64,000 nucleotides of DNA from Pseudovirgaria hyperparasitica (lineage: Eukaryota). The stretch lies in assembly GCA_010093815.1 (NCBI GenBank), contig ML996578.1; one strand, given 5' to 3'. The notes below the pieces were generated by a model. It saw only the letters and a list, made by a program, of their open reading frames with translations. It was not told where the DNA came from and made no database searches. Positions 20,451-46,840 of this stretch are shown here, in pieces; positions within the stretch are counted from its first letter, which is position 1, and every line of letters begins with the position of its first letter. The position numbers were made by a program, and so were the translations under genes.

Positions 20451-22513
20451 TACTAATAAAAAAGAAATAAAAATATAGGACTATAAGTATATTAACGCTC
20501 TCTATAAATTATTAGAGAATACTTACTAATATTAAGAGGATTTAACGGACGCCGTTAACGACCGTCTTTATTAACTTAACTCTATTAGTAGATAGTTACT
20601 AGAACTTAAGGCTTATATAGAAGAGGTCTACCCCTAGAGAGTTTTAGTTCTTATTAACTATAGGGCTAATAGAACATATATATTAATAAAGGTTACTAGG
20701 CGCCTAAAGCTAGTACTATAACCTACTCCCGTAATACGTATTAAGCTTCCGTTAGGAGCCCTAATAATAAGTTAAGAAGTTATAAAAATCCCTCTTCGTA
20801 TAGAAAGCTTTATCTATAAAGTTTCCGTAAGGATACTCGACCTAAAAGGCTATAATTTAATCCTAGAATATAAATAGCTCTATAAATAGAATCCTAATAT
20901 ATTATAGAGATTATATTCCCTACTAATTAAAAGACTAGTAGTCTAAGGAAGGACTAAAGAGTATCTACTTAAAGGGGCCCCTACGTTAATTAATATTAAC
21001 TTATAAGAAGAGTAAGTACTAAATATCCTTACTACTAGCTAAGTACGGAAATAATATCTAAACGGCTATAAGTAAGGTATAATATAGTTTATTAGGAAAG
21101 ATAACCCTCCTATACTATAAGTACCTAACCTAATACTATAAACGGTTTTAATAGAGTACTAGAACGTCTTTAAGGAGAAGCTATCTAAAGAACTACCACC
21201 CTTAAGATAATAGAATTATAAGATAGATATAGAAGACGGCCGACCTATTAATAACGCCGCCTACTACCTTTTCCTAGAATAAATCGCTAAATAGTAGAAG
21301 TAGATATAGGAGCTTATTAAGTAAGGGCTTATCTAAGAATTAGAAAGTACCTAGGGTAGTCTAGTACTTTTCGTACCTAAACCCGGAGGTAAATAGTAAA
21401 TATATATTAATTATTAAGTACTTAATATACTTATACGTAAGGATACGACCCCTCTTCCGCGTATAGATAAATATCTATATATCTTCGGCTAGTTAATAGT
21501 ATTTAGTAAGATAGACTTAACCTTAGGGTTTTAGTAAGTACGAGTAGCTAACGAAGACATCTCTAAGACCGTCTTTAATATAATTTACGGTAAATATAAG
21601 TTTAAGGTAATACTATTTAGTCTATTAAACGCACCTACTATATTCTAAAAGATAATAAATTAAGTCCTTTAACCCCTACTATATAAATCCATAGTTATAT
21701 ACCTTAATAATATTATTATCTTTTCTAAAAATATAGAAGAATACGCTAGAGTACTATTAAAAGTACTTACTCTACTCCGTAAATACCGCTTACTTACTAA
21801 TCTAGAGAAATATAGCTTTAGCTAGACCGAAGTTAACTTCTATAGATACTACGTCTTATAAGGATAACTTCGCCTAATAAAGAATAAGATTAAGATAATT
21901 CGCGAATAGCTAGAGCCTATAAACGTTAGCGAAGTCTAATAGTTCCTTAGCCTAGCGAATTATTATTAGAGGTATATCTAGGGATTTATAAGTATTACCG
22001 TACCCCTAATAGACCTCCTTAAAGAAGTAGACCCTCTTATCTATAAGTAGAAGTATAGGCCTATTTAATAGATACTATTAACGGCATTTACCTTTAAGAC
22101 CCTAAAGAATACCCTATATTCTAAACTAGTTCTAGCTTAACCTAATAAAACTAAGCCCTTCTATATTAAAATGGATATAAGTAACTATATAATTAGTATA
22201 GTAATCTACTAGGAGAATCCTAGTAAGTAGTATTAGCTAATCGCGTTTAACGGACGAAAGCTAAATAGTACTAAGCTTAACTATCTAGTTCACGAAAAAG
22301 AACTCCTTACTATTAAACATACTCTATATACTTAGAGATATCTACTAGAAATAAAGAAGACGATGATTCTAACTAATTACTATAGCCTATAGTTCCTTAA
22401 GTCTATAAAGAAATAAGAAGGCTATATAGATAGATAGATTAATAAGTTCGGAAGCTTTAATCTCGATATAAAATATCGCCTAGAATCTAAGGCGGTAGTA
22501 TCTAACGCCATTA
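20450..22513 (+). pseudogene. pol, 5' part: aspartic protease, reverse transcriptase, RNase H
   Basis: VLINYRANRTYI (protease, LIDxGA-like) at about 20645; VLFVPKPGGK; FSKIDLTLGF*QVRV; VIYLNNIIIFS (YLDD) at about 21700; YLVHEKELLTI; and KAVVSNAI where the insertion interrupts it. Confidence 0.92.
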
Positions 22514-22557
22514 CATTAGGAAAGATACAGCGCTCCCAAGTACTTCTAAGTACTCCC
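22514..22557 (+). repeat. Left terminal inverted repeat
   Basis: CATTAGGAAAGATACAGCGCTCCCAA is the reverse complement of 44596-44621 with two transitions; weaker similarity extends to about 44 bp. Confidence 0.92.
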
Positions 22558-22649
22558 TAAGTATTCTTTCATCCCATTATATTCATCGGGCGGACCTACT
22601 TACTATCTATCCCAACGGGACGGCTTTATATAATTTGTACTAAGTATTC

Positions 22650-22784
22650 CGTTTATACCAAACGTCCCGTTTATACCGAACGTCCCGTTTATACCGAACG
22701 TCCCGTTTATACCGAACATACTAGTTATACTAAACGTCCCGTTTATACCGAACGTACTAGTTATACCGAACGTCCCGTTTATAC
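22650..22784 (+). repeat. Subterminal 18-bp tandem repeat (GTTTATACCGAACGTCCC) running into assembly gap 22785-23224
   Basis: About 7 visible copies. Confidence 0.9.
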
Positions 22785-23224: not shown

Positions 23225-25169
23225 GGCCTCGTGGTAGTCTATATAGTTCCCTAGCTATATACTAATATCCGACTTCTCTTAAAAGTATACACTCTTTATA
23301 TATAGGTTAAAGACCCGACTTGAACGTCCGCCACCATCTAACTTTATTTTAATTTAAGTATTGGTCGGGGTAGATAGACTACTAGTTAAGGTAGCTATAA
23401 CTAGGGATAATAAGTTAGTAATAGACTTATTTATACTACACGTATACATACTATTATTTACCGTTCCCGCGGTTACTTAGAGCGGGTCTATACTTAATAC
23501 CCGAGATGGTATAATCTTATCCGTAGCCACTACTAGTGGTATAGAACTCTCACCCATATCTAATGGCGTATAAGATGATTCGAGGCACTTATCTAACTGG
23601 TTTAGAGTATCCGACTCATCCTTTTCGTAGTAGTTAGTACCTATATAGCCTCTATAACTTTAGTATATACTTATATTACCCGATAGCTTAGACTCCTCGC
23701 TCTCGTCTAAGTCATCTATATCTACTTTAGAGAAGTTATCTAGGTTATCTTTATATGGGTTTATATATATAGTATCCGGGTCGATTAGTGTTAGTGCTAT
23801 AAATACCGATGCTATTAGTAATTTTTAAATATAGTCGATGCGGTAGGGCGCCTAGTTCGACCATATTAGGCTTAGCGCTCGCCATTCCTCTATATAATTT
23901 AGCACGCGATTAGATAAAGGTATATATATATACCTAGTATTAGTGGAGAGCGTGCGAATCTATAGCAACCGAAGGACGAGTTCGGCGCCCGCCCGCTACT
24001 ATATTCGTTAAGGGCATGCCTTATTATAATATATATAATAGTAATCGTGGATGGTAGGATCGGTCGGAATATACTACTATAGTGCTCCTTCGATCTAAGG
24101 AATCTTAGGGACTATAGTAGAACTAACTTTAGAGCCTTAATTACTACTAGCCCTACGAACATTTTCCGAGTTACGCTAGTATTATACTAATAATTAGTAA
24201 CACGTCTAACACGACGTAAGTAATATACCTTTACTTCTATATACGCGTTATTACGTATTAGGTTACTTATACTAGCTTTTCTCTTCTTAGCTATCTCCTA
24301 GTCCTAGTGTTCGGATACTATCTATCTAACTCTAGAGAGGAGTTAGTAACGGAAGTCCATTATATCTTCCTTTACTAGCGTAATAATATGGGCGGGAGGT
24401 GTGTTTTATAAATTATAATTAAGGTAGTAGCTACTAAGATTAATATCTCCGGCGGCTGTCTAGGCCGATTATACTAGTATCCTAAAACTATCTAGGCTAC
24501 TATCTAGCTATATATTAAGGCGATCGAATACCGGTAGTAACCGGCCTAAAAACGTTATGGCGATCGAAATCTCTATTATCGCGAGGTACCGGTCTCGTTC
24601 GTAAGGCTAAAGACTATCTCTATAGGACCGCCTCTTTTCACGGATAGTTGGTTCCCTCTCTACTACTATTTCTCCACCTTCTTCTATCGAGCTAGATAGC
24701 TAATATGGTAGAGGAGAGGACGTAAGGCCGTTATATCCCCGGTTACTATTATAGTAGAATGTTACCGTGACGTCTAAGCTATATAGGGCGTTACTACCAT
24801 ATTCGCTACCGGTATACCTAGACTACTAGGTTATTAGTAGATAAACGAACGCGTCGAGATAAGCTAGGTATATATATATACGTTTTTTATGTCGATGGCT
24901 GTCGTGTAAGTCCCTATTATTAATGCTAATACGTGTCTACATTATATCGTATCTTTGTTTACCTATCCTATTTAGTTTACTATAGTTACTAGATTATCTT
25001 CTATTAGTGTTACCGCTACGGTAGCTAGATAGTCCCTTAACTATCTTCCGTGTTAGAGGTCCTATAGAGAAGATATATAAGAGATTAGTAGATATTTTTA
25101 TTAGTAATAGGTCGGTAACCTACTAGGCGATAATATTAGGTAGCGGGATAATAACTAGCTAGTAGACAT
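23225..25169 (-). pseudogene. Possible RIP-degraded cargo ORF of unknown function, divergent from the transposase
   Basis: An ATG at 25169 opens a frame with protein-like segments (KKVEKIVVEREPTIREKRRSYRDSLLALRTRPVPRD). No family motif was recognised. Confidence 0.3.
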
Positions 25170-25440: not shown

Positions 25441-28400
25441 ATGCCACGGGCCGTAGTCTCCTACTAATACTATAGTAGAAAGATTAGTAGTATATACTAT
25501 ATAATCCATAGGCACTATAACTCGGAACCGTATAGACGAGCACGGCTTGCCGCATCGCTATTATTATTATAACTATTAGGCCCGTAGCTACCACTATTAA
25601 CTAGGTCATAGCGCGGCTTTAGTACTCGTAGTTATATTAGTCGATAGAACTCTTTAGTTTGCTCTATTAGTGTTTAGCCGTCGAGCGTTAATTAGGAGTC
25701 CGAGCCTATAGAATTAGATACTTCTACTACTAATATTACCCTATATAAAGATACCACTATTTTCCCTAATCCTATTTCGGACCTAGAATCTATGGATAGT
25801 GTTACTAGTAGCTATAGTACCGATTTAGTATGTTAGTCTAATATATATAGTAGAAATGCTATATCTATAGCGACGAGGGCGTCTAGTACTATATATTCAA
25901 TAAAAACGTTCGAAGAGGAGAGCGGTATATATATTATAGTAGACTAGAGTAGACGTGATAATCCGTCCGACGTAAGTATATATAGTCTAGGTTTATAGTA
26001 GTAACTAATTTAGTAGGCCCGATTCGGTTAATTCGATAGTAAGTTTATAGAGCGCCTTATAATATAGACGAATCGGTTTGGTATTTCGAATGTAGTATAC
26101 GATAAATTAACTACTATCCTTAAATAGACTTCCGCTATACCCCCTAACCTTTTTATACTAAAATCTAATATCGTGCGTAAGTAGTTATTATACTACCCTA
26201 AAGGGATACCGTACGAAAGTTAGTAGCGTAGCTACGATATATTCGGCACTACCATAGTCGAATACTAGTATAGGGATCCGCTTATATTAGTGGAATTCCT
26301 CCTTAGGTACCGACCGTTCGCTAGTAAGCTCGTGTTTAAGCCGGTACGATAATTTACTAGTTTAGGCGACCGGGTATATAGTAAAGCCTACATAGTAGAT
26401 GGTTAGTAGGATATACACGCTACTATTCCGGATGGTGCCGTTATCGTCCCTATTATTTTATCTTCGGATAAGATAAACCTTACTAACCATAGTAGTAATA
26501 GAGTAGTATGGCTAGTCTACCTATCTATTTATAATCTACCACTAAACGTCCGCTTATCTAGGAGTCTACTATTATTTCTACTACTTGCTCTATTACTAGT
26601 AGTTAAGCTAGAAACGGTAGCGAATCGCTTTATGTTCCATTAGGTTATGAGTAAAGTTCTAGCCTATATATCCGCCTATAATAGAGTCGTTAACTATACT
26701 AATTATTATATAGTGTTATAGGCTATATAGAGTACTAGAGTATTAGTATTATATACCGATGGCGGCTCGCGTAAGTACTATCCGCGTTTAGCTTTATATA
26801 TTATAGATTTTCCGGAGTAGGTGCTTATCACGGGTGTATCCTATCGGTATACATATCTAACATATATAGTCCCTAGTAACAGACGACAGTATCTACGAGA
26901 AGCCATTACTAGTATATAGAAGTTCCGCACACACTCGTCGTTATAGGAATAGATTTACCGTATACATCGCCAGTTAATAACTAATAGCCATAGTAGCGAG
27001 TACACTAGTAGTAAGACAGATGATAGGATAAGTATACCCGGTGTCTTATCGTTTTCGTCGACGTCTTTCGCGCTAGTAGTATAGGGCTATTATATTCGCT
27101 AATCGGTTAAGAGTCGGTATTCTAGTAGGTGGATAGAGCCATTAGATAATTTCGCCTGGTTACTTACTAGAGTTAATATACACCGCGCGGTCGCTCCGGA
27201 CATTCTACATTAACTATATAAGGGCATATTAGAACACACGTTTAATTAGATAGTCTCGCATGTTATTAATTAAGAGCGTACGGGACATAAGTTAAAGGGT
27301 GTATTTACTAGTATACCCCCTATAGAACGAGTAAAGAAGGCGATCGATAAGCGATTCGCGTCTATTAGGGTATTTAGTCGTCATAACCTACTTATATATA
27401 TAACTTTAGTAATATAATGGACGGGGGCAATGTTTAAGCGTATACTAGTAGTGTTTATAGTCGCGTTTAAACCGCTCCTATGTCATAATCGACACTTCCT
27501 AAGCGTAGTACGGGCGGTTATTAATATATACATGTTAGCGGCGTACTATACGCATGATACGTAGACACTAGTATACTTAGAAGAGGCTATATTACGCTTA
27601 GACGACCTGAAATACTAGTTTATACTATATTGTGGAGATAAATCAGAGGATAATCATTTTAACTTTCCGAAGTTCCATGCATTATCGCACCTGGTCGATG
27701 CCATTAAATACTATGGTTCGTTACATCTAATGTCGGTAGAGCTACTAGAGTAATCTTATATTATAGTAAAGGAATTATATCGAGGTTTAAATAAGAGGGA
27801 GACGTTTCTATAGTAGATGCTAGTAGTAGATATACGCATAATAAATACTAAAATCTCTAGTAGTATAGAGGTGGCGGCTAGTACTAGTATATTAGTAGCC
27901 TCTAGCCTAGAGTAGCTCGATAATACACGTAAGCTGGTCGGCCAGCGGCGTATTCTAAAGGAGCCACGCCGGAGTAAACATATACTCTACGTCTTATAGA
28001 GCCATAGACTATCTACGTTCTACTAGACCACCGTTAGCGACCTCTACGACGTATATAGTAGTAGTTTCATGTTACTTAATATAGTTACACCCTTTATACG
28101 TAACTGTTATAATCGGCTTATTAGGGATAATATATTAAAAGGTATAAATATCGAATGTATTAAAAAGGACCCTTCGTAGGCACGGGTCCTTTCTATCTAT
28201 ATATACGAGACCATGTACGTGCCGATACGACTAGATAGAGACTATAAATAGACGAAACGTGACCGTAGCGTTAAAACACGGGCGCGTATCGTAAGTCTAT
28301 CGCTGTCTACCGCCGCCTACCGTAGTATACCGGCATATGCCGGCATATGGCGGAAGTTATAGTTTATATATAGTAGCACTCGATAGTCGTATCCTATACT

Positions 28401-28710
28401 AGGATATCTCTAAGGAATAATCGTGGTTTATTGCGATCGGTTCTATAAAAGGCTTATATTTAATAACTATCTATAATTTTAGCTAAGGAGTATCTAGGGA
28501 TACACCTCCTTATTACCTAATAATTACTAGCTAGTATAAAAACTCTACGCCTCTAAAAGGGGTATATAGAACTTAAAGGATCCTCATTCACGGATAGAAC
28601 TAGACGCGGATAGTATTAACCTAATATAGATAGATTATATATATTAATACCCTAAAATCCGAACTATGTCTCTAGGCCCACTAGACCTAGCTCATACCCG
28701 ATTCTAATGT
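25441..28710 (+). pseudogene. Plavaka-type transposase, RIP-degraded
   Basis: VIVPIILSSDKINLTNHSSNRVVWLVYLSIYNLP (about 26440-26545); RKYYPRLALYIIDFPE*VLITGV (about 26770-26840); APDILH*LYKGI (about 27190); HFNFPKFHALSHLVDAIKYYGS...VKELYRGLNKR (about 27655-27800). There is a possible N-terminal Cys/His finger. Ends are approximate. Confidence 0.88.
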
Positions 28711-31700: not shown

Positions 31701-32131
31701 AACACTATTCACTTATACCTATATTTACCTAAGCCCCGATTCGATAGCCTTCTATAACGTACTATATACTCGGTCGGCGAGCTACTAGACTCATATAATA
31801 GTAGTATACTACCCCACTTTATATACTGCTTAAGCTACTATTACTTTAGCCTACGTTAATCTTAGCTTCCTTTAGTCGTCCCTGTGTTATAAAAGAAAAC
31901 TTCTATAAACCTTTCCTCTACTTATCTTGGTTTTTAAACCTAAATCTTACCTTCTATACTTTATTCCGTGTTAATTACGACTATATACGAACGCTACGTC
32001 GAACTCGACTCTATTAACCCTTAAGGTCCATTCTATATAATAGTTAACGAGGTTATATTTATAGTTTATAATATGGATCAAGAACTCGTTATATTTGGCG
32101 ATATTTAGGACTAGTCTACGCTCGACGTAAT

Positions 32132-32500
32132 TGAGCCTTACGTTTAAGCCGAGTCTTACGTTTAAGTCGAGCCTTACGTTTAAGTCGAGCCTTATACTTA
32201 AGTCGAGCCTTACGTTTAAGCCGAGCCTTACGTTTAAGTCGAGCCTTACGTTTAAGCCGAGCCTTACGTTTAAGTCGAGCCTTACGCTTAAGCCGATCCT
32301 TACGTTTAAGCCGAGTCTTACGCTTAAGCCGATCCTTACGTTTAAGCCGAGCCTTATGTTTAAGCCGATTCTCACGTTTAAGTCGAGCCTTACGTTTAAG
32401 CCGATCCTCACGTTTAAGCCGATTCTTACGTTTAAGCCGAGCCTTACGTTTAAGCTAAGCCTTACGTTTAAGCCGAGCCTTACGCTTAAGTCGAAGCTTA
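32132..32500 (+). repeat. 18-bp coding tandem repeat, about 20 copies (de-RIPed EPHVQA/V)
   Basis: GAGCCTTACGTTTAAGCC units in frame with the ATG at 32073. Confidence 0.9.
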
Positions 32501-35500
32501 CGATACGACCACCGTCTTAACCGATAATAAACCACTTATCTTTAGTATACTTACCGGTAACTACCGTCCTAACGACGAGTATAAACTTAAGAAGGTCCAA
32601 AGTAGTAAGGCTCCCGTTCCTACTTACGCTATCTATTAGATCTCTCTTATATAGAGCGATCTATAGTTAACCTTTAGGAATGTCTATAGTATTAGTAGAG
32701 AAATAGATAGACTTAAGTAGGAATAAGCGAAAACTCAAGCCGAGCTTAAGCTAGTAGTATTTAAGGCTCGTGGTAAAGGTCACGGCTTTAAAGAGTCGAT
32801 TAGTTGTATATATAGATTCCTTGAATTCCCTGAGTACCGCTCTTAGATTAAGTTGCGTGCTCGCTTCCGATGGATTAATAAAGGGAAATCGGTATCCTTA
32901 ATAAGCTTACTCCGCTTTAATCGTACTAATATTCTTCTATTATCCGACCACCCTACGGTGTAGATCTTTAAGGTTAAGTAAGTAGGCGACTTTATTAAGT
33001 ATTTTCCTAAACTTCCTAATCTTATTATAAGCAAAGCGGATAAAGCCAATATACTATATATTAACACCGGCCTCTACGAAGACCCTCGCGACTTTTAGGT
33101 TATTAAACTTATAGCTAGCGAGCTTCTTAGTATAGGTTTTACTATCCCGTTATATATCGGACCCGATATAATACACGAACGAGTGAAGTAATTCTTCGAA
33201 GATCTAGGTACTTATACTATAGTTCGTATCTTGCTACCGCTACGTAACCCTATGGATCTTACCGGCTTTAATAATAAGCTTAAACTAGAGAGCGATCCGA
33301 TTAATTCATGGTATATAGAAGTTACTACTCCCCATATATAATACGGTATAATAAGTAGGCCGGATACTTGGCCCTAGATCTCTATTCCCTACCGCGAGTC
33401 ATTTAATAAGAAATTTAACTACCTAATATACATCGCTATAAGCACCTTATAAGATGAATAGACGGATCTCCTATTATTCTAATTCCAAGACATTACTATT
33501 AGATATATCTAGCTCTTAGGTGTTACTCGGGCGCTCTTAGCTATCGTCTATCCCATTAATGCGAAAGGATTCCATCGCATGGAACCAGGTAGTCGTGGGT
33601 ACCTTAAAGTAGATTCAAAGGATTATAATAACGACGCGTACCGCTTTAAAGTCCTTCGATTTCGCCTAGGCGTCCTCCTATTCGAATGCCTTACTCTAAA
33701 AGTCTTTAATAAGGTTAGACGTCCTCCTAAAGCACCTAAGGTACCGATTATATTAATGGATACGGTTACTAATATAACTCGAGCTCGTCCTAAATATTTT
33801 ATTCGGACTAGCGATACTAGTTTAAGTACGATCGGGTCGTCTCTTATTACGCTTATAGAATTCACGGACGTTCCGGCTTTAGTTAGCGTATAAACCTATA
33901 ATAAGCTTACTAAGTAACGCATTAATACGTGCTAGAAACTAACCTACCATACTATATAAGCTCCTAGAGACGGTGGCGTAGACGACCACGCTACTTAGGA
34001 TGCGTTTAATGTGATGGTCCTTAATGTTATCGTAGACTTAGTATCTATGTCTCTAATGCATGGGTCCTCTAACCCTAATAACGAGATTCTAGATTATAGT
34101 ACGGAGCCTTAGGATACCCTCATTACTCTTTCTAAATTATCTATATCCCTAGATAATAATAAGAACATGAATATAGAACATAGTCACGATGTTATTAGCG
34201 ACGAAGGTTCCATTACTAGCCCCGTCGCCGATATATATACACTCCTAATATTGTCTAAAGTCCACTCTAGTATCCTATCCCCTTTGCCACCCTCCGTATA
34301 GGACCTAATACTTAGTAATAACTACCTAAATCTTTAACCCGTCGACTATAACCGCTACGTTAAAGATTATGAAAGATTCTACGATCTCTAGAATATCATA
34401 CGTTCGGAGCTATCTCCCTAATAATAGTATACCTATATATAGGCGACGGACGTACTTAGGGCTTAGTTCCTACTTCACGGCTGTAGAGGAGCTAGGAAGA
34501 GCTATTTATGGCTTCGTCTACTACTAGCTACACTTCTAATTAACGAAATGAACGGTGCTCCTATTATCACTCATACTACTAAGGTAGTTATCCTATCTAG
34601 CGATGTGATAGCGTACCTCCCTACGCTAGGTTCCATCTAAATATATAGGATATATATATATGTTATTATCGGCCTAACTAACGAAACCTACGACGACGCT
34701 ATAAGAAAAGTATATAAATATATAAGTAATATATTTACTCGCTATAAGTCTCTAAAGACACCGGTCGTTCTTCGAAGATGCCCCGAAGCCGTTAATCGAG
34801 AGGTTTTCTTTACTATAGCTAGACTATCTTATCGCGGCGACCCTCTTATCGGGCTAACCTAGGATGATATAATAGGCGGTGCCATCCTTACGTAAGTCTA
34901 GGCCGACCATAGTAAATGACTATCGGAATATAGCACGGATCCCCGTGCTCGTCTATAGAAACTATATACCGGTTACGTTGCGCTTAAGGTCGTTAGACTC
35001 GTTAAATCTCGATACTAATACGAATGGATCCCTAAGAATTTCGAGAAAGAAACGGCTCGGCTATTACGCGCTATCTATAAACGTTACGCTCGTAATAAGG
35101 ACATGCCTAAGGAGGAGCATAATAGGATGAACGAGCTATACCTCGCTACCTAGGACCTAGTTACCATCCACGCCTAGATTCATGTAGGGACCCTATATAT
35201 TATGAATATCGCCAAGGTAGCCCGTAATATATATCCGATTTTGGTCGTAATAGAAGAGGCTACGTGTATCCTTAAAAGTAATACACTTAGGATTATCGTT
35301 AATTACACTACTATGGAATAGTAACCGATATTTATTTACGTCGGCGACCTACGCTAGCTCGACACCTACTAGCGTGATAGTACTAATATATAGGCCGCGA
35401 ACTAGAGGATCTCCTTTATAAAGCGCTAGATATAATATAGTTTCCCGACTACTCGCCTTACCGAGTTAGAACGCTTAGTTCCTAGAATAATAAACGTTAT

Positions 35501-36489
35501 ATCGCTAATTACTTACTTGGGCGAGCTAACGACCTCGCCCTATATAACGAATGATATCGATATACTACTCGCAGAGACCGTTCGATAAATATTTAGAATC
35601 CGCGGCTATTGATACGTTATATACGCTAACATCGACGGGGATCACGTGTACATAGTAAATAACTTAATATATAATATAGACTTATTGCGTTTCACTTAGT
35701 GGATTATCACCGAGCTCTTCTGTTATAGCGTTGCACTTAATCGCGTGCTCTATATTTCTATATACGCCGCCTAACGTAATCTGTTTAAAGGGATAGTTAG
35801 GAACTCGCTTCTAACTATACTTACCGCAGCGGATAAAGCTTAATTTAATGCCCTACCTAAGCCGGTATAGAAGCTTATCTAATAGCGTTCATAGAACGGT
35901 TCTTAGGGTTATAATAACGATATAGTCCTTATCGATCCGGTCTAAACCAATCGCTTCGGCTTCCTCTCGGAAGTAAACCATAACGTCGTTACTATTACGC
36001 GCGCTAAATAGATAATGGTTATTATCGCTAACTTCGTATCTCTTAAGAGGTAGAAAGTCCTAGACGGCGTACTTGGCGAGATATAGAATAAGTGCTCTAA
36101 GATTCATACGATATACACGTGCACGACCCCCGACCTAGATGGTCTCCCTCTACTCTCTAACATGCCTAATCCCTAATACGGTCGCCCTATACTTAGTATT
36201 AGAGAGAGGGGAGAACGAAGCGATTAATAAACTACTAATAGTACTAAGCCCCGTAAGCCGCTAGTCTACCGTAAATATAACGTTAAAGGATATAAGTCTA
36301 TTAAGTATCTAAGAGGGTCGACACTTATATATAATAACTATTAGGACATCGGCCATAAAGCTAATGTTTACCCTAAACCCAAGACGCTTACGGGTACGTT
36401 TTACCATAATTATAGAACTACCAGTTATACTCGGCGTTATTATCCTAGCCGCACTAAATTACCAGCACGCATAAATAGTAATAATCTAG

Positions 36490-36580
36490 TTAATACTACT
36501 AGAGCTAATACTACTAGAGCTAATGCTACTAGAACTAATACTACTAGAACTAATACTACTAGAGCTAATACTACTAACGA
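36490..36580 (+). repeat. 15-bp coding tandem repeat (TAATACTACTAGAGC), about 6 copies
   Basis: Directly visible at the C-terminal end of the helicase. Confidence 0.8.
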
Positions 36581-37590
36581 AGTAACTACTAGCGGCTAGG
36601 ACGATAGAGACTACGAGGATACCGGCCGAGACGGCGGTGTTATAATATATAAAGACATGGAAGTCAATTAGTAATAGTATATAATTAGACTCACGTGTTA
36701 GGGCTACTTAGTCACGGCTTCTTAGTAAGTATACCTCTGTATCTATTTTAGTTATAGTTACGATATCCTACTAGGTAGATAGTTTAGCTCTATTAAAGAC
36801 CTATTAAGGGTATTTCTATTACGTTTACTCTAGTATAGACGCGCTATTAGATAATACGGCGCTACTAGGCACGTTAACTAGTACCTACCGATTAAGAAAT
36901 AAATATAATTCTATATCTACCGTGAGCCCCGGCCTAATAACGTAGGCTTCCTTTAGTTATCCCCTTTATACTTTTAAAACTACTTCTAGCCTTTATATTA
37001 GGAGATATTACTATCTAAAGAGAAAATATAAAAAAACATACGCCCTAATTAAAGCCTCTACCTTTAGACTTTAACTATAATATATACGGGATATAGTAAA
37101 CCTAAATATCGCGTACTTTAAAAGCATGGAAGGATACGACACTCGAATACGACGAAATATAGGCTCATAATACTCGGAGAGTACCTAGGGATAAGCATAT
37201 GAATATAAAATGGAATAAGACTAACGCGGCACCTCGTATATGCGTAGCCATGTGCCGTCCTAGACGTAGTTGCCTACGATATAATATTGCGAGATAAGAA
37301 TCATGGCTATCTAATTCTATTAAGGGTATTAGACGACATAAAGTGAATAACTACACGCCCGACCACGCCACGCCAAGTTACGTGCGTGTTATAAACGCGT
37401 GTTCGAGGAATAATAAGGATATAAACGAGGTTCACCTAGTAGGTGCCTCGTTATTCCGGCTTCTACCTCTATCGTCCGACCTATACCTCCGTCTTCCTTA
37501 CGCCCACGATATACTACGCGTATACTATATAATTAGTCCGTAAATTATAAATACTATATTAACTACACACGTTAACTACACACGATTAAC

Positions 37591-40500
37591 ATGTCGAATC
37601 CGATTCTATAACAAAGTAACCGTCCGAATATAGTAATTACTATAGTACTACTTCGTATCTTAAGCCTAGATATATAAGTAAAGCGTGAAGCTATGGAGGC
37701 GCGTATAAGGCAGCTATATATAGAAGTATATACGGCTACTCTACTCGTAGACTATGGACGTCGAACTAAGAACGAGCTCGGCGTAAAAAGAGTACGTAAG
37801 ATTATTAATAAGGTAGCGGGTAAATTCCTAGTAGTATAGGAAAGAGTAGTAGAGTGTATAGAGATAAAGGCGCTATACCATATCTATAACTAGGTACGCA
37901 CTATAGTATAGAAAACCGTATATTATAGAAAAACTATCTCCGAGTATAAGAAGAGGCGCGTAATTATAGCCCTATATCCCACGATCTTATAATCCCCGCC
38001 TATTACGACCTTATAACCTCCGCCTATCGCGACCTTATAACCCCCGTCTATTACGACCTTATAGCTCTCGTATACCACGACCTCATAGCCTATACTTATA
38101 GCGGTTCTATAGCCTACTAACGTATATACTACGAGAAAAATCAAATTCACGATTAGGTTTAACGATAACGTATTCCTCGAAATACTAGTACCTACGTCTA
38201 ACTAGTAGAAAGACTATAGCGACGCTTCGTGTGTTAATTTAGTAGTATTTATATGGCGAATTAGGGTCTAATACGTAATAAAGACTAGGAGGGCACTTAA
38301 CTAGAGCCGTACTACTATATATTCTATCGTGCTAGTAGTCGAGTATATAATAAGTAAAATAGAACTAGAGGTAGATATTAGATGGCTCCTATAGTTAGCA
38401 ATCGAATATATCCTAGAATATAGTAATAGTATAATACTCCTCGGCCTTAGATAGGATATAGATGGTATACCCGAAGTAAAACGAAATATAAACCAGCGAC
38501 TAACATATAATAGCATAGATGGCTATATATAGGTTACGCTCGAATAAATCCGCCCCTCCGTCCCTAATACTATACTTACTATAATTAGTATAATAATAGT
38601 AATAGAAAGCTACCGCCTATGACGGTAGAGATACCTACGGAGATAGTATTATAGGTAGTAGATAGTATTACCTAAACGACTTAACCCTTCCTCTAGTAAT
38701 ACTATATATACTACTATCGGCACCCGGGAAGTTGCGAGACCAATCTATAAGCTCTAAAGATAGTGACTTCGAAAGCCTTAAAAGCACCTTAGATATAGAG
38801 GATATAGATATCGCTTTTAAAGACTAATAGAATAATAAAAAGGGTGCTAGAGGCAGTGAGAGTAGCGTACGTACTTGGCTAAGGCGATGCGATCCGACGT
38901 AAGACGGCTTCTACCTACTATATATCGGTATATACCCGATTCTACTAGCTATATAACTATGGTGCACATGTTCGGTTAAGACGTTACGACACTAGTATAA
39001 GCCGGCGTCTATCTAGTTTACGTCGGGATACGCCCGGTCCTACTAGCTATATTATTACTACGACTATAATCGTATAAGATCCACTCTAATAATTAAACAT
39101 TTACTTATATACTTCACTTCCTCCGCACTTATCGAAATTACGTTATAATTACTAAACGCGGCGACTTAACTCCTACCGCCTAAATCTAGTTTTCATATCT
39201 TATCGCCATTAACGCCGTCTTACTACCTATGGCCTAAGTCATATATAGGAATAGATAGATATAATAAGAGTCATGACTATCCTAGTTTAACTACCGGCCA
39301 TAGAATGGCTAACTATGACACGCACATACGACGTGCAGAGGCCTTAAGCGTTAGCGCCCTCCTACCTTATATCTAGTACCTCCGAGGCCTATACCTAATA
39401 CCTAAAATAAGTTATAATATATATAGGGCTACTATTATTAAGATAGTAAGTAAAGAAGTAGTAATAGAGCTTGAAACTAGTAGTATAGATACTACTATAC
39501 TCCATAGGATAGTTAAGGAAACCATTACTAGAGAATTTAATTAGCATATCGCGGCTATAAATGGTAAGTTAGTACCGATGGTTACGACCATAGATATAAC
39601 AGAGGCTAAACTAGATATAGATACTATAGGCATAGATACGTAGACATAGTTACCGCTAGAACATAAGGAGAAAGATAATGTGGAAGATACTAAAATGGAA
39701 GACGACGTAGCTAGTATGCTTAGACATATATATATATATACGGTCCTAGATACTAACATTATCGGAGTAGTATCGAATACAGGCGCGGTTATAACCACTG
39801 ACATAGATAATCCACCTATAAATATCATCGTGCCTAGCGAAGCTTATCCACGCGTAAACATACTAGCCATAGAGATATAGTTATAGTTGCCGCCGGAACA
39901 TACGGAGAAAGAAAACGTGGAAGATACTAAAATAGAAGACGACGTAGCTAGTATACTTAGATATATATATATATATATATAGTTCTAGATACTAACATTA
40001 GAGTAGTATCGAAGATAGGTACGGCTATAACTACCGATATAGATAATCTACCTACGAATATTATCGTGCCTAGCGAAGCTTATCCACGCGTAAACACACT
40101 AGCCATAGAGATATAGTTATAGTTACCGCCGGAACATGCGGAGAAAGAGAACGTGGAAGATACTAAAATGGAAGACNNNNNNNNNNNNNNNNNNNNNNNN
40201 NNNNNNNNNNNNNNNNNNNNNNNNNNNNNNNNNNNNNNNNNNNNNNNNNNNNNNNNNNNNNNNNNNNNNNNNNNNNNNNNNNNNNNNNNNNNNNNNNNNN
40301 NNNNNNNNNNNNNNNNNNNNNNNNNNNNNNNNNNNNNNNNNNNNNNNNNNNNNNNNNNNNNNNNNNNNNNNNNNNNNNNNNNNNNNNNNNNNNNNNNNNN
40401 NNNNNNNNNNNNNNNNNNNNNNNNNNNNNNNNNNNNNNNNNNNNNNCCATAGAGATATAGTTATAGTTACCGCCGGAACATGCGGAGAAAGAGAACGTGG

Positions 40501-43500
40501 AAGATACTAAAATGGAAGACGACGTAGCTAGTATACTTAGATACATATATATATATATAGTCCTAGATGCTAATATTAGAGTAGTGTCGAAGATAGGTAC
40601 GGCTATAACTACCGATATAGATAATCTATCTACGAATGTCGTCGTGTCTAGCGAAGCTTATCTACGCGTAAATATACTAGCTATAGAGATATAGTTATAG
40701 TTACCGCCGGAATATACGGAGAAAGAGAACGTGGAAGATACTAAAATAGAAGACGACGTAGCTAGTATACTTAGACACATATATATATATATATAGTCCT
40801 AGATACTAATATTAGAGTAGTATCGAAGATAGGTACGGCTATAACCACCGACATAGATAATCCATCTATGAATATTATCGTGCCTAGCGAAGCTCATCCA
40901 CGCGTAAACATACTAGCCATAGAGACATAGTTATAGTTACCGCCGGAACATGCGGAGAAAGAGAATGTAGAAGATACTAAAATGGAAGACGACGTAGCTA
41001 GTATACTTAGACATATATATATATATATAGTCCTAGATACTAACATTAGAGTAGTATCGAAGATAGGTGCGGCTATAATTACCGATATAGATAATTCCCC
41101 TATAAATACCGTCGTGCCTCTAGATACCGGCGAGACTTACCTACGGCTGCTAGAAATAAAGAGGACACTCTTGGATAATATAGTAAACCTAGTCGATTCT
41201 CCGAAACGCCTAAAACTAGAATATATTATACTACTAGATGTCGACTAGTAGACATATGAAAACCAGGAACTGTTCGGGTTAGTAGATAATTTATATAGTA
41301 GATATATATCGGATAGTACATTAGTGAACGGCCTTGACTTTAAAATCCTTTCTATAGACGACGACTCTAACGGAGATGAAGTAAAGCTAGATATAGAGAA
41401 CTTAATTCCGGTAGATAACGATATTAGTACGAAACTATAGAAAGCGTAAGTTATACTAAGAAGTAAGTAGGAATATACACTACCATACTAATATACCTAT
41501 AGAATATTCGCCGTTAATAACTCCGATAAAGTAGTCTAAGCTATCTCTTATTATACGGAAGAGATACGGTCACTTACTATAAGTATATTTAGGCTTACGC
41601 TAGACGACCTAATAAAGGAGTTCAGCCATACACCTACTCTATATCCAGCCTTTAGTATAAGTAGGTTATATAGGCTATAGGCCGGCCAGTTACTCGCGGT
41701 AGTTACTATATTTAAGTAGCGGGCGGGTCCGTGGAAGTGCTAGATCTTAGTAGATAGCCTAGGGCTAGGGAAGATAATCGTGCTTATAACGTTCATCCGC
41801 CTCGCGTTTTATTAGGACTTTCTACGCGATAATATAGAACTTAATCTAGGAAATTATCTATAACCGACTTAAGACTCGGGCATAGATAGGAAGTACCCGA
41901 TATAATCTCTGCATCCGATTAAATGTCCGTGTAGCTAGACTAATGATTTCGTCTATATGCCCCGCCTTTAAGGACTATTTATACTATGCTACCTAAGGTC
42001 CCTTCTAATAGCGCATTGGCCGTAGCGCTTTAAATAGATGTATAATAATACGGATAGTATGTTCACCGATTAAATCGATAAACGGAACCTAATAAAGATG
42101 ATAGTACGGCTAGCGTACTCGAAAACCCTTACCGACGCCCCTAGTATCTAATAATTCTCATATATAGACCGATAATACTTAGCTAAGAGATGCCCACACC
42201 CCGAATGGGAATATAGCGTCGATATTAGTAATACTACTAAATTCGAGACCGACGAGGAGTGTATTATTAGGGCATGGTCGATTCCCGTTAATAGGACCGC
42301 TACCACCGAATTTCCGTCACGATACACGAAGAACCATATAATCTATAGCACCGTCTAGAGTATAGAACCCTAATATCTTAAATCTTTTAAGGGACGCGTG
42401 GTTATAAGAGTAAAGAGGGCGAAACAATTCGGTACTAAAAACACTTAAACTTGCGAAGTGGCATTCCTCGGTATATTAATGGTAGACGAGTTCCATTCTA
42501 CAAAGAACCCCGATATAAAACAGTATAAATATGCGATATATAATGCCCTTATATTTAGTATATAGGTTAGTGTAACGCCCCTCTCGAATAGTCTAGTAGA
42601 TATTCTAGCGGCTATTAAGGCAGGTGCTCTAGATAAGTTACCCGACTACGTCGACGATAATACTACTAAAAGGGTATTCGAGAGCCTATAGAATAAAACT
42701 ATAAGGAAGATTATTATAACGTGGTCGAATAAACTCCTTAGTTTAATAAAAGGCAAGCCGGTGGATACGATGGCCGCGATAGTCCGTAGGGCATTAGAAA
42801 CCATAGAAGGTAAGTGCACACTACGTATAGTAGCCGATTAGTATTTACTATTCGTCCTATAACGGGGACTACTAACTAAATGGTTTAATGGAGAGGCATG
42901 TCTATCTACGACATTAAAGCTAGTAGTAGAGTTTATATCTATCCCGGCTATAGAACTAGAGAAGATAATCGTACGGTCATACGAGAATAGAGGTAGATAG
43001 TTTAATAATCCATAGCCTAACGGAACGCCGCGGGACTTATAGATATAATCTACCGCCTAGAGTAAATCGAAAGGGGGTACCGGGTCCGGGCTCAACGCAT
43101 ACTACCATTAGGCCAGGCTAGCTACTACGTGTATACTACTTATATACCTTACCGATAAAAAGATAGAAGACGAGTAAATTAATATCACGCTCACGCGTCG
43201 GAGGGATGGTAATAATAGTATACTAAGTAAGATAATTACCAATCCCGTACGCGAAGCGCTCCTATAGCTAGATAAGGCTATACGAAAGAAGATAGTATCG
43301 CTAGCTAATAAACACGCTTCGAAGGTAAACTAGATCCGTAACTTTATTAATAATAACGTTTATAATAAAAGTACTAGACGCGCGCGATGAATATCCGCCG
43401 ACCGCCCGGAGAAAATTATACTCGCATATACCGTACCGGTAAGCTTGATGTTCCTATACTTAGTGAGTGTTTATACTGCCTACTAGTAACGTAATTTACT

Positions 43501-43970: not shown

Positions 43971-44114
43971 AGTAAGTAAGGTAGTCGGTTAATTAGCTTC
44001 TAAGAGACTAGATAGCATGGTAGTATAAATATAAACCGCTGTTTACTCGTGATAACATGTCTATATATATCTATACATAAAGAGAAATAAGATATTTATT
44101 CTATACCATTATAT

Positions 44115-44595
44115 AGTAGGACGTTACTATATATACCGGCATACAACGGAATATTCCGACATACGCCGGTATATTATAGGATATTCCTAGATACTCGAAG
44201 TATAGTCGTAGTATAAAGTAGCATTACTATTATATGCCGGCATATAGTAGAACGTTACTACATATGCCGGTATATAACGGGATCATGTTCTAATATACTA
44301 TACGCCGCCGGTATATTATAGAATATTCCTAGATACTCGAAGTATAGTCGTAATATAAAGTAGTATCGCTATACTATGCCGGCATTTAGTAGGACGTTAC
44401 TATATATGCCGGCATATAACGGGATTAAACGTTTTCTTAACGTTCGATAGAACGATTCTAAAAGAACCAGGACGGCTCTAGGAGAACTAGAACGACTCCG
44501 GGAGGACTAGGACGACTCTAGGAGGATTGGGATAACTCTAGAAGTACCGGGACCCATTTAGGATAACTTTAGAAGTACCGGGAGACCTAGAAGCA
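44115..44595 (+). repeat. Right subterminal repeats (about 130-bp units rich in ATATGCCGGCAT, then 20-bp GGAGGACTAGGACGACTCTA-like units)
   Basis: Directly visible just inside the right TIR. Confidence 0.8.
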
Positions 44596-44621
44596 TTGGG
44601 AGCGCCGTATCTTTCCTGATG
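44578..44621 (-). repeat. Right terminal inverted repeat
   Basis: TTGGGAGCGCCGTATCTTTCCTGATG at 44596-44621. Confidence 0.92.
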
Positions 44622-46840
44622 TAGTAGAAGGCTAGACTTCTAAGGCAAGATTTCCGTAATACCATTAAGTAAAGTTAATAAATATATTCTTATAGTCTAA
44701 ATTATTAAGTTCCTAAAAGGAGCTAACCCGATAGAGTATATACTAAAAGTCTCTCCTAAAATCCTATCTTAACTACGTCTTAACGCTAAGAGTAAACTTT
44801 AATATAAGCTATAGAATTTTAATAATAGTTAAGAAGATTTAGCGGAAAATTTAGCGCCTTATATCCCGGAATAATACTATAAGTTACTAGTAGAAACTAT
44901 ATATTAATAATTTAGTTACTTTATATAGCCCGGACTACTAGAAGCCTTAGAAAAATAAGGCTAGTAGTTTAAAATAAAGAAAGACGTAGAGGTGGTCGCT
45001 TGTAATTACTATTAATACTAATTAGTATAATAAGTACTACTAAATCCATAATACGAGAGATAGTTTTATAGGGTTATACGCTAAGTACCCTTTAAGAAAT
45101 AGAGTATTAACTTTATAGGCGTACTCTCTACTACATATAATAGTAATAGTTAGGTAATAATAGTAATTAACTATATAACGGGATAGTCTATTATATAGGT
45201 AGTCCCTAAAGCGACCGTAGAATCTATTACGAGGTTTATTTATAAACGAATCTTTATAGATTTTAGACCTCCCGCCGTACTAACCTTAGATAATAGTTAA
45301 TAGTTCCTATTAAGAGTTATTAGTATATTACTACGCATTCTTAAGACGGAATATAAGCTTATTATACTTTATTACCCTCGTATAAAGGGGAAGGTTAAAC
45401 GCCTTAATAGAATCTTAGAAGGTATTCTTACCTATATATATATAGGCGAACTAGTAACTAACTAGGATATATACTTACTAGCCGCCGTCTTTACTATAAG
45501 AATCCGATAATATAGAAGTATAGAAGTTAGTCTATATTATCTAGTATATAGATAGTACCCTAACTTACTAGGGAATATTCCTAGAGAAAAGAATAAGTTA
45601 ATATCCTTTAATAAACTTATTAAGTAAGTTAAGAAAGTATAATACGCTAGGACGCTAGCGCTAAATAAACTACTTATAGAAGCCGCTTACCGAGACCTTA
45701 TAGATCCGACTCGGCTTAAACCTAAAGACTAGGCGCGACTATCTATTAGTTAAATTATTTTACTAAAGAATAAATAGAAAACGAAGTTTAAAACGAACTA
45801 CTTAGGTCCCTATAAGGTTTATATATAATACCCCTTAGGTATATACGCGCTAGAAACACCTAACGGACGTATCCTACGATACCTTATATATAGTAATAGG
45901 CTAATTATAGTAAGAGGTATTAATAAGCTAGATAACTTCTAGATAAGATAGAAGATTAACTTATAGATATCTAAAGAAATTAGGAATTAAGTAGCACCTT
46001 ACTTACTAGATATTAAGAAGGTTTTAGAAAAAGAGAAACCTACTCTATATTAGATAACTCTATCCTCCCTTCCTAAGAAGGAGTAGAACTAGCTATAGTA
46101 GCTACGGAGTTAACGAGAGTTAATATATAAGGGCGTATATTTATTCTTAGTAGAGGAGAGCTTAATAGATGTAAATATTACGTATTAAATTAGACTTACT
46201 AATATAAGAAATCGACGTAAACGGAGAGCTACTATAACTATATTAATTATACTAGTACTAATTATTATTAACGAACTAAGAGATATACTAGAAGAATAAC
46301 ACGAGAATAGTAGAGCGATATAACTACTAATAATAAATATTAAAGAGAGCTATAATACTCTAAGGGTAGAGGAAGTCTAAATAATAACTAAGAAACTAAT
46401 AGATAACCTATTAAATAAGATTAATATAGTAGAGAAAGCTATAACGGAAGCGAGGTAGAAAGAATTACCTAAAGAAATAAGCTTAGGAGACGAGTTTAAT
46501 AATATATAAATAGACTTAGATAAGGATATCTAACTAGAATATAAGAATCCTATAAGTATAGATATAGACTTAGATATAGAAGAAGTATTAAAGGAGATTA
46601 ATAAATTAAATAAATAACCTCTAACTAACTTAGACGTCCCTATACGGGATCTTATAGAAAGTAAACCTTATACACGAAAAAGAAAGCGATTCTATATAGA
46701 TAAACGTAGTAGAGAAACCTAAGCGGCTATAGCTAGCGCGTTAAGACGAGTTAATAGATTAGAAAGAGAGAGATACTCCCTATAGAAAAAGATATTACCT
46801 TTAAAGCTATTATAGGAACGCTTAGAATATAACTAACCTT
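44622..46840 (+). pseudogene. pol, 3' part: integrase with GPY/F motif and long charged tail
   Basis: Resumes as SRRLDF; PFKK*SINFIGVL; FRPPAVLTLDNS*QFL; YYPRIKGKVKRLNRIL; YLGPYKV at about 45800. No chromodomain was recognised. Confidence 0.88.

Follow-up and report, generated by a model that had tools for sequence, protein, structure and literature searches.

Remnant of a UPF1-like helicase gene with probable degraded zinc knuckles in a giant Plavaka-type transposon of Pseudovirgaria hyperparasitica

Accessory genes are rare in DNA transposons, and the cases that are understood (VANDAL and the elements bearing TET/JBP) show how elements fight silencing by the host. Helicases are carried by some DNA transposons, with a Pif1-type enzyme in Helitron and a RecQ-like enzyme in Academ. 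The PlavakaB family, which is related to CMCT/EnSpm, is described as having CATCA..TGATG termini and target duplications of 2-3 bp, and as carrying accessory genes, those in fungi being TET/JBP (Kojima 2025, PMC12730594). Red algae are reported to have giant Plavaka elements that measure 17-19 kb and carry three accessory genes, PAG1-3 (10.1101/2025.02.11.637652), and an ascomycete truffle is reported to have Plavaka elements whose duplications are 2 bp long (PMC12581995). According to the latter account, Plavaka-type elements are misclassified by automatic tools, and because of this a defined 22-kb element such as the one described here should aid repeat annotation.

The stretch of DNA analysed here (the window; 64,000 nucleotides of contig ML996578.1) holds a Plavaka element of 22,108 bp at positions 22514-44621, which encloses the helicase gene and is inserted into a Gypsy retrotransposon. 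The element is bounded by 26-nt inverted termini, CATCA..TGATG. In a RIP-tolerant local alignment of the left end against the reverse-complemented right end, the first 26 nt (CATTAGG.../CATCAGG...) gave 24 identities, 2 transitions and no other changes. The left terminal inverted repeat (22514..22559, plus strand) starts with CATTAGGAAAGATAC, and its right counterpart (44576..44621, minus strand) has the last letters ...TGATG at 44621. A RIP-degenerate form of the 26-nt terminal pattern matched twice in the 64-kb window, at both ends of the element, with 0.02 matches expected, and this search found no second terminus pair inside the element. The flank at the left end reads ...GCCATTA, its final TA at 22512..22513 being one copy of the 2-bp target duplication (TSD), and the matching TA lies at 44622..44623. 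Without the element and one of the two TA copies, the Gypsy pol frame is whole again (...VVSNAISRRLDF / ...NAISRRLDF). Subterminal repeats occur at both ends: on the left, 18-bp tandem repeats (22616..22784, with 7.6 copies in 22649-22784) extend into the first of two assembly gaps in the element (runs of N at 22785-23224 and 40177-40446), and on the right (44097..44541) are 142-bp units with TATGCCGGCATA palindromes together with 20-bp tandem units. An array of at least 6 tandem units of 236 bp (39627..41119) is split by the second gap. A PF18759 transposase, inverted termini of the CATCA..TGATG type (the left one, CATTA, a single C>T away) and the 2-bp TSD identify the element as PlavakaB, so that a complete 22-kb member with its termini, TSD and gene order is now defined in a RIP-active fungus.

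The stretch that includes the helicase is present as many diverged copies in a sample that is probably the source sample, and these copies differ nearly only by transitions. Comparison of 15.6 kb including the helicase with this sample gave 12,664 contigs at 80% likeness or above (4186 at 99% or more, 3681 at 95-99%, 3747 at 90-95% and 1050 below 90%); every run consists of contigs, and their summed depth is no copy number. The contigs covered 30 of 30 bins of this stretch, and sites 33860 and 36405 in the helicase were covered by at least 12 distinct contigs. Counted by place, the differences comprised 367 C>T, 357 G>A, 120 A>G and 128 T>C against 10 transversions. The copies also differ in structure, since a break at 28241/28242 is seen in several contigs from other copies. 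No contig linking transposase and helicase in another copy was seen, and no run recorded as RNA was among those listed for the stretch. The termini, the TSD, the many diverged copies and a Plavaka transposase on the same strand as the helicase now show that the helicase is transposon-borne, as the first-pass annotation had called it.

The RIP-degraded core of this transposase lies at 26248..26889 on the plus strand (PF18759, E 2.1e-34, 119.7 bits, cutoff 26.3; E 6.1e-21 in another Pfam scan), within an ORF remnant of about 24.5-28.7 kb in a single frame, in which stop density is low from 25.4 to 28.4 kb. Another ORF points away from the transposase and contains a RIP-degraded DUF6532 remnant (23971..24402, minus strand; PF20149, E 2.2e-6, 28.2 bits, cutoff 24) that corresponds to aa 635-778 of the minus-strand frame at 23227-26304. 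Towards the right end is a weak match to a possible SNF2-family ATPase remnant (41729..42613, plus strand; SNF2-rel_dom, E 0.016, 14.8 bits, cutoff 24.9), where LGLGKI, MVDEFHSTKN and TPLSNSLVDIL follow in order by eye only, with a motif at nt 42479; in 42900-44602, scanned in three frames, Pfam did not find Helicase_C, and there was no match to a solved structure (PDB). Pfam scans for other transposon domains covered the minus strand in every frame over 23225-40176 and 41098-44621, the plus strand in every frame over 23225-26702, 28900-32072, 36675-39703 and 42900-44602, and single plus-strand frames elsewhere. They returned no reverse transcriptase, integrase, other transposase or other TE domain inside the element, neither a Pif1-type helicase with a Rep/HUH nuclease nor a RecQ-like helicase with an XPG nuclease, and no TET/JBP domain in the parts scanned.

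The helicase might instead have come from a different mobile element nested in the Plavaka copy, which would make its link with the Plavaka transposase accidental. The block is already nested, with Plavaka inside Gypsy, the break at 28241/28242 in other copies would fit such an origin, and about 3 kb on either side of the helicase are without a recognisable domain. Against this, the terminal pattern has no further match within the element, the interior scans found none of the enzymes that a second element might bring (reverse transcriptase, integrase or another transposase), and 32-37 kb is not bracketed by a long direct or inverted repeat pair. We therefore regard a nested origin as very unlikely.

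The RIP-degraded helicase-knuckle ORF occupies 32073..36674 on the plus strand, where the first-pass annotation had recorded about 1500 codons; the frame has 1534 codons from an ATG to a double stop. It is interrupted by 90 in-frame stops (89 TAA/TAG and one TGA), and this copy is dead and cannot make protein. The RIP indices of the helicase region (TpA/ApT 1.63; (CpA+TpG)/(ApC+GpT) 0.32) are alike throughout a block of about 33 kb (about 17.5-50 kb) that includes it, and the flanks differ. The N-terminal part of about 800 aa (aa 1-797) had no match by Pfam, phmmer or hhalign. Near its start, the predicted (EPHVQA)n tract corresponds to a tandem array of 18 bp x 20.6 (32133..32502, plus strand), but the array now reads EPYV*A, and in our reading of the translation His is kept in 2 of 20 stop-carrying units; EPHVQA is therefore a sequence that we infer. 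The array can also be read without stops in another frame, as (SLTFKP)n. The C-terminal tail of the ORF includes a 15-bp tandem repeat, (NTTRA)n (36491..36576, plus strand).

By its sequence, the helicase core (34464..36050, plus strand; aa 798-1326) is UPF1/NAM7-like SF1B, of the AAA_11/AAA_12 type, and neither PIF1 nor RecQ, as had been proposed. At E<=1, Pfam matched AAA_12 alone in the helicase ORF (PF13087; 35445-36032, aa 1125-1320; E 3.8e-6, 27.0 bits with the cutoff at 27). An hhalign comparison with a profile of 10 relatives aligned 467 columns over aa 798-1326 (Prob 99.8%, E 3.5e-28), and these residues are readable without any frameshift. Pfam did not match AAA_11 (PF13086) at E<=1 in the decayed ORF, but the hhalign alignment also spans the RecA1 half. 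Motifs I, II, III, V and VI had been noted in order, and alignment with the relatives places them, and Ia as well, in the canonical order. Motif I (GCRGARKS, 34479-34502, plus strand) aligns with the Walker A sequence GPPGTGKT, the second-last Gly having become an Arg that is reachable by G>A, and motif II (IEEAT, plus strand) lies near 35250.

A phmmer search of 1.84 billion representatives gave 23 matches at E<=1e-3 (best 3.7e-14) with 20-28% identity, and AAA_11 and AAA_12 were both present in 13 of the 13 relatives scanned. From the alignment, the helicase is placed in an uncharacterised ascomycete subfamily whose members share a D-x-R...SLG block located after motif Ia and before motif II. 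The relatives' profile matched UPF1-like chains, scoring 238 bits for UPF1, 214 for ZNFX1, 195 for SEN1, 184 for SMUBP2, 170 for AQR and 147 for DNA2. The suggested placement in the silencing clade of Hrr1, SAD-3, ZNFX1 and MOV10 was not borne out: the ZNFX1 domain (PF25396) was not found in the ORF by Pfam and NFX1-type fingers were likewise not found, UPF1 outscored ZNFX1 with the profile, and the only links to the Hrr1/SAD-3/ZNFX1 clade are the EEA form of motif II and a ZNFX1 chain that was the sole solved-structure match of the decayed sequence (E 0.0018). Pfam at E<=1 also gave no match to the UPF1 CH domain (UPF2-binding) N-terminal of the core, where RIP decay could mask one.

Three probable CCHC zinc knuckles survive only as Tyr-for-Cys ghosts towards the C-terminal end of the ORF: YRKYNVKGYKSIKY (36267-36308), YNNY*DIGHKANVY (36330-36371) and YHNYRTTSYTRRYY (36402-36443), all on the plus strand. 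The knuckles had been read from the translation as retroviral-type; the literal pattern C-X2-C-X4-H-X4-C and Pfam zf-CCHC (PF00098) are absent from the helicase ORF, and what stands is the cluster of degraded forms. All of the 'Cys' codons are now TAY, the expected RIP product of TGY, and one His codon is retained; with TAY taken as a former TGY or CAY, the CCHC pattern appears three times. The six-frame translation of the block (64,998 residues) contains the RIP-aware pattern [CY]x2[CY]x4[HY]x4[CY] 13 times, and the three matches in the helicase frame begin at nt 36267, 36330 and 36402, 21 and 24 residues apart. Three or more patterns per 70 aa were found in 2 of 6462 windows of that size, both at the helicase C-terminus, which is the sole such cluster in the block.

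Since the AAA_12 score is exactly at its cutoff, and since Tyr is frequent in RIP-mutated frames and the knuckles need Tyr to be allowed for Cys/His, one might suppose that AT-rich DNA mutated by RIP has thrown up the motifs and knuckles by chance and that there is no real gene remnant. This supposition is refuted by the hhalign result, by the uniqueness of the knuckle cluster in about 65,000 residues, and by a test of RIP-reachability, and we give it practically no weight. In that test, 83 columns conserved in the relatives comprised 41 identical in the helicase, 14 reachable by C>T/G>A alone and 28 unreachable; the 55 of 83 that are identical or reachable compare with 13.7 +/- 3.3 (maximum 27) in a random-codon control.

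It is also possible, though unlikely, that the Plavaka family captured the helicase from its host, as a whole gene or a piece of one (transduplication, Pack-type), and amplified it passively while the gene did nothing for the element. In favour of capture, the closest relatives look like ordinary proteins of Ascomycota: they are labelled 'hypothetical', are of the AAA_11/AAA_12 type and fall into clusters of 60-80 members. No CCHC knuckle was found in the detected relatives (0 of 23), so the helicase-knuckle fusion has no intact counterpart among them, and this too is consistent with capture. In addition, transfer of Plavaka accessory genes from one transposon lineage to another has been reported (PMC12730594; 10.1101/2025.02.11.637652). 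A captured gene, however, sits less easily with a full-length frame from ATG to double stop that is no fragment and has no indel across the core, and with the location of the helicase on the same strand as the transposase. Identity to the best relative reaches only about 27%, which gives no hint of recent acquisition from a donor, although the value is reduced by RIP.

The reading that we prefer, and hold to be the probable one with some reserve, is that the helicase gene is a RIP-killed copy of an accessory gene of a giant, multi-copy PlavakaB-type transposon that inserted into a Gypsy element in a RIP-active fungus. Before RIP, its product would have been a protein of about 1500 aa with a low-complexity N-terminal tract, then about 650 aa of unknown fold, and in the C-terminal half a UPF1-like 5'-to-3' SF1B core with three CCHC knuckles that would bind single-stranded nucleic acid. 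Such a protein may have acted in trans for its element family, the knuckles loading the helicase onto the element's RNA or DNA where it is single-stranded, and its purpose may have been to blunt RNA-based silencing or to aid DNA transactions at excised or inserted ends. Our best guess is an accessory single-strand nucleic-acid translocase that would serve transposition or counter silencing. Among the functional options we lean, tentatively, to the silencing or chromatin side, because known Plavaka accessory genes are of that kind and the element may encode an SNF2-like ATPase. A more speculative proposal, to which we give a rather low probability, is that this giant PlavakaB family, in a RIP-competent ascomycete, carried a counter-defence module in which a UPF1-type helicase, tethered to RNA by its knuckles and perhaps working with the SNF2-like remodeller, would act on the transcripts of the element or on its R-loops. 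The element would in this way escape quelling or meiotic silencing, or be recognised later by RIP. If true, this would make it the first DNA transposon demonstrated to encode a helicase of the RNA-surveillance type that counteracts silencing. The known Plavaka passengers are chromatin- or DNA-modifying, and a UPF1-like helicase with knuckles would add the handling of RNA or single strands. The helicase-knuckle protein would also offer a concrete test object in fungi, in which assays exist for RNA silencing, for methylation and for RIP.

The element shares with PlavakaB, as described (PMC12730594), the Plavaka transposase domain, the termini, a 2-bp TSD, subterminal repeats and the presence of accessory genes. 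It differs in its cargo, which comprises the knuckle-bearing UPF1-like helicase, an ORF with DUF6532 and possibly an ATPase of the SNF2 type, in its size of about 22 kb, and in a host with classical CpA>TpA RIP. Like the giant Plavaka of red algae, as these are reported (10.1101/2025.02.11.637652), it is very large, multi-copy and mostly degenerate, with several accessory genes and internal tandem arrays. The two differ in kingdom and in cargo: the red-algal elements of 17-19 kb are reported to carry an N6-methylase/SET protein and a ParB-2OG oxygenase, whereas the 22-kb fungal element carries the helicase-knuckle protein. With the UPF1-like SF1B helicases (UPF1/NAM7, SEN1, ZNFX1, SMUBP2, AQR and DNA2) the protein shares a core of the AAA_11/AAA_12 type with motifs I-VI in order; in place of the domains that distinguish UPF1 and ZNFX1 (CH, ZNFX1 and NFX1-type fingers) it has probable retroviral-type CCHC knuckles, and unlike those helicases it is transposon-borne and multi-copy. 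Helitron and Academ are likewise DNA transposons with a superfamily 1 or 2 helicase of their own, but the helicase here is of the UPF1-like family, and its ORF is separate from the DDE-type Plavaka transposase, so that it lies outside the catalytic transposition protein. Giant Plavaka elements with accessory genes are thus already known, and what is new is the helicase cargo, a UPF1-type helicase with three zinc knuckles being a passenger gene so far undescribed for Plavaka transposons.

The helicase gene at 32073-36674 (+), now dead, is carried at full length as a passenger by a multi-copy PlavakaB element, on the same strand as the transposase. It occupies a single frame of 1534 codons, from an ATG to a double stop, where the first-pass annotation had proposed a helicase frame of about 1500 codons, and it contains 90 in-frame stops (89 TAA or TAG and one TGA). 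When the ORF was translated with stops as X for protein searches (sequence P0001), Pfam returned AAA_12 alone, at aa 1125-1320 (E 3.8e-6, with 27.0 bits equal to the curated cutoff), and ZNFX1 was the sole solved chain matched at E ≤ 1 (E 0.0018). At E ≤ 1e-3, a HMMER search with aa 335-1532 against 1.84 billion representatives recovered 23 proteins, of which the top match had E 3.7e-14 and 27% identity; all matches were confined to the helicase part. Both AAA_11 and AAA_12 were present in each of the 13 relatives scanned. Alignment by hhalign to a profile of ten relatives (A1) needed no frameshift across aa 798-1326 (99.8%, E 3.5e-28), and aa 1-797 had no match to that profile. When the decayed helicase was the query, a word-indexed protein search gave no match at E ≤ 1e-3 among 7997 scored candidates; with the relatives' alignment it gave 10 matches, none of them new and with no CCHC family among the matches listed.

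The SF1 motifs I, II, III, V and VI that had been read from the sequence were all paired with the relatives or located in a MAFFT alignment, and the assignment to UPF1-like helicases likewise agrees with the Pfam, hhalign and relatives' domain results. Motif I reads GCRGARKS in the window and GPPGTGKT in the relatives, motif II VVIEEAT against VDEAA, motif III VGDLR*L against vGDxxQL (asterisks mark stops), and motif VI GFLSEVNHNVVTITRAK against GFLxxxNRxNVAlSRAr. A subfamily block reads STDPRARL.KLYTG against sDxRxxxxxlSLG, and motifs Ia (TNETYDDA) and V (S*NGS*GYNNDIVLIDPV) were also located. Seven or more of the ten relatives agree at 83 columns. For each of these we asked if a codon for the consensus residue could become the window codon by repeat-induced point mutation (RIP) alone, through C>T or G>A: 41 columns were identical, 14 could be reached in this way and 28 could not, and random codons of the same ORF gave 13.7 ± 3.3, with a maximum of 27 in 2000 draws. 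The helicase remnant is real.

Which helicase subfamily does the remnant belong to? Placement was by bit scores against solved chains, in place of a tree with UPF1, SEN1, Hrr1, SAD-3 and ZNFX1. The A1 profile scored 238 bits against UPF1, 227 against yeast NAM7, 214 against ZNFX1 and 195 against SEN1, followed by SMUBP2 (184), AQR (170) and DNA2 (147). By these scores, the gene product is a UPF1-like SF1B helicase that falls in no named subfamily. A protein atlas groups one relative, the 'hypothetical protein' P0004, with hypothetical AAA_11/AAA_12 proteins in clusters from Ascomycota, and no CCHC knuckle occurs in any of the 23 relatives. The first-pass annotation had noted that the UPF1/NAM7-like clade includes the RNA-silencing helicases Hrr1, SAD-3, ZNFX1 and MOV10. 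The EEA form of motif II in the decayed copy and the ZNFX1 structure match are insufficient to place the gene with ZNFX1, Hrr1 and SAD-3; Pfam found no ZNFX1 domain in the decayed helicase and the fingers are of the knuckle type, and thus membership in this clade is not borne out.

The three CCHC knuckles claimed for the protein survive as decayed patterns, although the helicase ORF has no literal CCHC and no Pfam zf-CCHC match. RIP turns Cys (TGY) and His (CAY) codons into Tyr (TAY) codons. The corresponding pattern, [CY]x2[CY]x4[HY]x4[CY], occurs 13 times in the 64,998 six-frame residues of the RIP-marked block, and three matches within 70 residues are found nowhere in the block except in one cluster. 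That cluster lies in the helicase frame (+) directly after the core, with knuckles at nt 36267, 36330 and 36402 spaced by 21 and 24 residues, and G or S precedes the His position in each. Like the codon-reachability test, this is a codon comparison in which the sequence was left unmended, and on its strength we accept three putative decayed CCHC knuckles. The N-terminal (EPHVQA)n tract fared similarly. A tandem tract is present at 32133-32502 (20.6 copies of an 18-bp unit), but it now reads EPYV*A. Because His is kept in 2 of 20 stop-carrying units, as read from the translation, EPHVQA is a reasonable inference; an alternative frame, (SLTFKP)n, is also open through the array, and the reading of the tract is therefore unproven.

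The decay of the gene is shared with its surroundings. Across a block of about 17.5-50 kb, GC content is 27-40% (flanks about 50%), TpA/ApT is 1.4-1.9 against 0.65-1.06 outside, and (CpA+TpG)/(ApC+GpT) is 0.03-0.42 against 0.97-1.40 outside. This dinucleotide pattern is the classical RIP signature. Two N runs, 22785-23224 and 40177-40446, fall in the block. The normal-GC flanks contain exons with Myb DNA-binding, mitochondrial carrier and ARS-binding protein 2 domains (13531-14796, 58875-59549 and 62091-63044, respectively), which look like ordinary host genes of fungal type. Positions 1-1000 are likewise AT-rich (33.6% GC), and the opening 2 kb have no clear RIP index.

A RIP-tolerant local alignment of both junctions located the inverted termini of the element. 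The left terminus starts at 22514 (CATTAGGAAAGATACAGCGCTCCCAA) and the right terminus is the reverse complement from 44621 (CATCAGGAAAGATACGGCGCTCCCAA); over 26 nt, they share 24 identities and differ by 2 transitions. A RIP-degenerate 26-mer with up to 3 mismatches matched these two sites alone in the 64-kb window, where 0.02 matches are expected. Gypsy remnants lie outside the element on the plus strand, with a reverse transcriptase at about 21376-21840 (RVT_1, E 4e-12) and RNase H at about 22090-22434 (RT_RNaseH_2, E 1e-18) on the left, and on the right, beginning at about 44.65 kb, a stretch (+) that reads by eye as integrase-like and has no Pfam match. Since pol remnants lie beyond both ends, the insert of about 22 kb splits a Gypsy pol gene. 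TA adjoins the element at both ends, and joining the flanks through one TA gives ...YRLESKAVVSNAISRRLDF in the Gypsy pol frame, which we take to be ADALSRR, the region found after RNase H in Ty3/Gypsy elements. The region 18551-49732 covers the RIP-degraded Ty3/Gypsy retrotransposon (+) that encloses the Plavaka element, and two 128-nt direct repeats (18551-18678 and 49605-49732, 94% alike) may be parts of its LTRs. Kojima 2025 (PMC12730594) describes PlavakaB elements as ending in 5'-CATCA..TGATG-3' and having duplications of 2-3 bp. The element here (22514-44621, an assembled length of 22,108 bp) agrees with both. In an ascomycete truffle, Plavaka elements with 2-bp duplications are described in PMC12581995.

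From left to right, the element consists of the left terminus, 18-bp subterminal repeats running into the gap, a DUF6532 remnant (minus), the transposase, about 3 kb with no match, the helicase-knuckle ORF, about 3 kb more with no match, a 236-bp array, a weak SNF2-like remnant, 142-bp and 20-bp subterminal repeats, and the right terminus. The Plavaka transposase (PF18759, E 2.1e-34 and E 6.1e-21) is upstream of the helicase on the same strand. DUF6532 (PF20149; 23971-24402, minus, E 2.2e-6, above cutoff) is divergent from the transposase and may be a companion gene that Plavaka elements carry regularly. At 41729-42613 (+), a possible remnant of an SNF2-family ATPase has LGLGKI, MVDEFHSTKN and TPLSNSLVDIL in order; its Pfam match (E 0.016) is below cutoff, and the stretch has no Helicase_C and no solved-structure match at E ≤ 1. 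Just upstream, the 236-bp tandem array (39627-41119) has at least six units that are 87-93% alike and is broken by the assembly gap; it resembles the tandem arrays that red-algal Plavaka elements have beside an accessory gene. Candidate protein-binding subterminal repeats are the 142-bp units at 44097-44425, which contain short palindromes (TATGCCGGCATA) alongside several inverted-repeat pairs. No repeat pair bracketing the helicase was found. No reverse transcriptase, integrase or second transposase was found by Pfam inside the element in the frames scanned: on the minus strand, 23225-40176 and 41098-44621 were read in all three frames; on the plus strand, 23225-26702, 28900-32072, 36675-39703 and 42900-44602 were read in all three, and 26101-28899, 32073-36674 and 41000-44998 in a single frame each.

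Assembled contigs indicate that the element belongs to a repeated family. Two runs from one sample, possibly the window's source, contain 0.63 (X1) and 0.50 (X2) of the sampled words of 31000-38000, and their contigs were compared with 24000-39600 at ≥80% likeness. In X1, 12,664 contigs matched (4186 at ≥99%, 3681 at 95-99%, 3747 at 90-95% and 1050 below 90%). All 30 bins of the interval were covered, cover was equally dense across helicase and transposase, and at least 12 distinct contigs overlap at each of the helicase sites 33860 and 36405. The places of difference are nearly all transitions, with 367 C>T, 357 G>A, 120 A>G and 128 T>C, as opposed to 10 transversions. The stretch is present as many diverged copies, and we limit the claim to this because summed contig depth is not a copy number. 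Together with the inverted termini, the TA duplication and the same-strand transposase, these copies uphold the first-pass description of the helicase as transposon-borne. Moreover, the even cover and uniform RIP indices imply that the whole stretch, including the helicase, was repeated at the time of RIP. Several contigs of other copies cease matching exactly at 28241/28242 and continue with unlike sequence, and short contigs from a second sample end their match there too; copies thus vary in structure, and the family may have structural variants with a breakpoint at 28241/28242. Among the contigs displayed, none joins transposase to helicase in another copy. A join from 25482 to 35864 in one contig was dropped as too weak, with 21 letters on one side. 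Two runs from another sample with the same species label (X3 and X4) matched with just 5 and 3 short contigs, none of which reached 95% likeness; this does not prove absence. None of the runs listed as sharing words with the stretch is on record as RNA, which says nothing about expression.

UPF1-like SF1B helicases translocate in the 5'-to-3' direction along single strands of RNA or DNA, to which CCHC knuckles also bind. On this basis, the encoded protein would be a translocase guided by its knuckles and working in trans for the element. One possibility, to which we tentatively lean by analogy, is a role in silencing or chromatin; the possible SNF2-like neighbour agrees with a counter-silencing theme. 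A direct role in the DNA transactions of transposition seems less likely, and a captured gene with no function slightly less likely again. Supplements and Iyer et al. 2014 aside, the literature searched yielded no link of a Plavaka/EnSpm element with a UPF1-like helicase, nor with DUF6532, for which there was only an unrelated mention. Giant Plavaka elements with accessory genes are already known. Known Plavaka passengers are TET/JBP in fungi (PMC12730594) and, in red algae, a methylase/SET protein together with a ParB-oxygenase (10.1101/2025.02.11.637652), and these point to counter-silencing.
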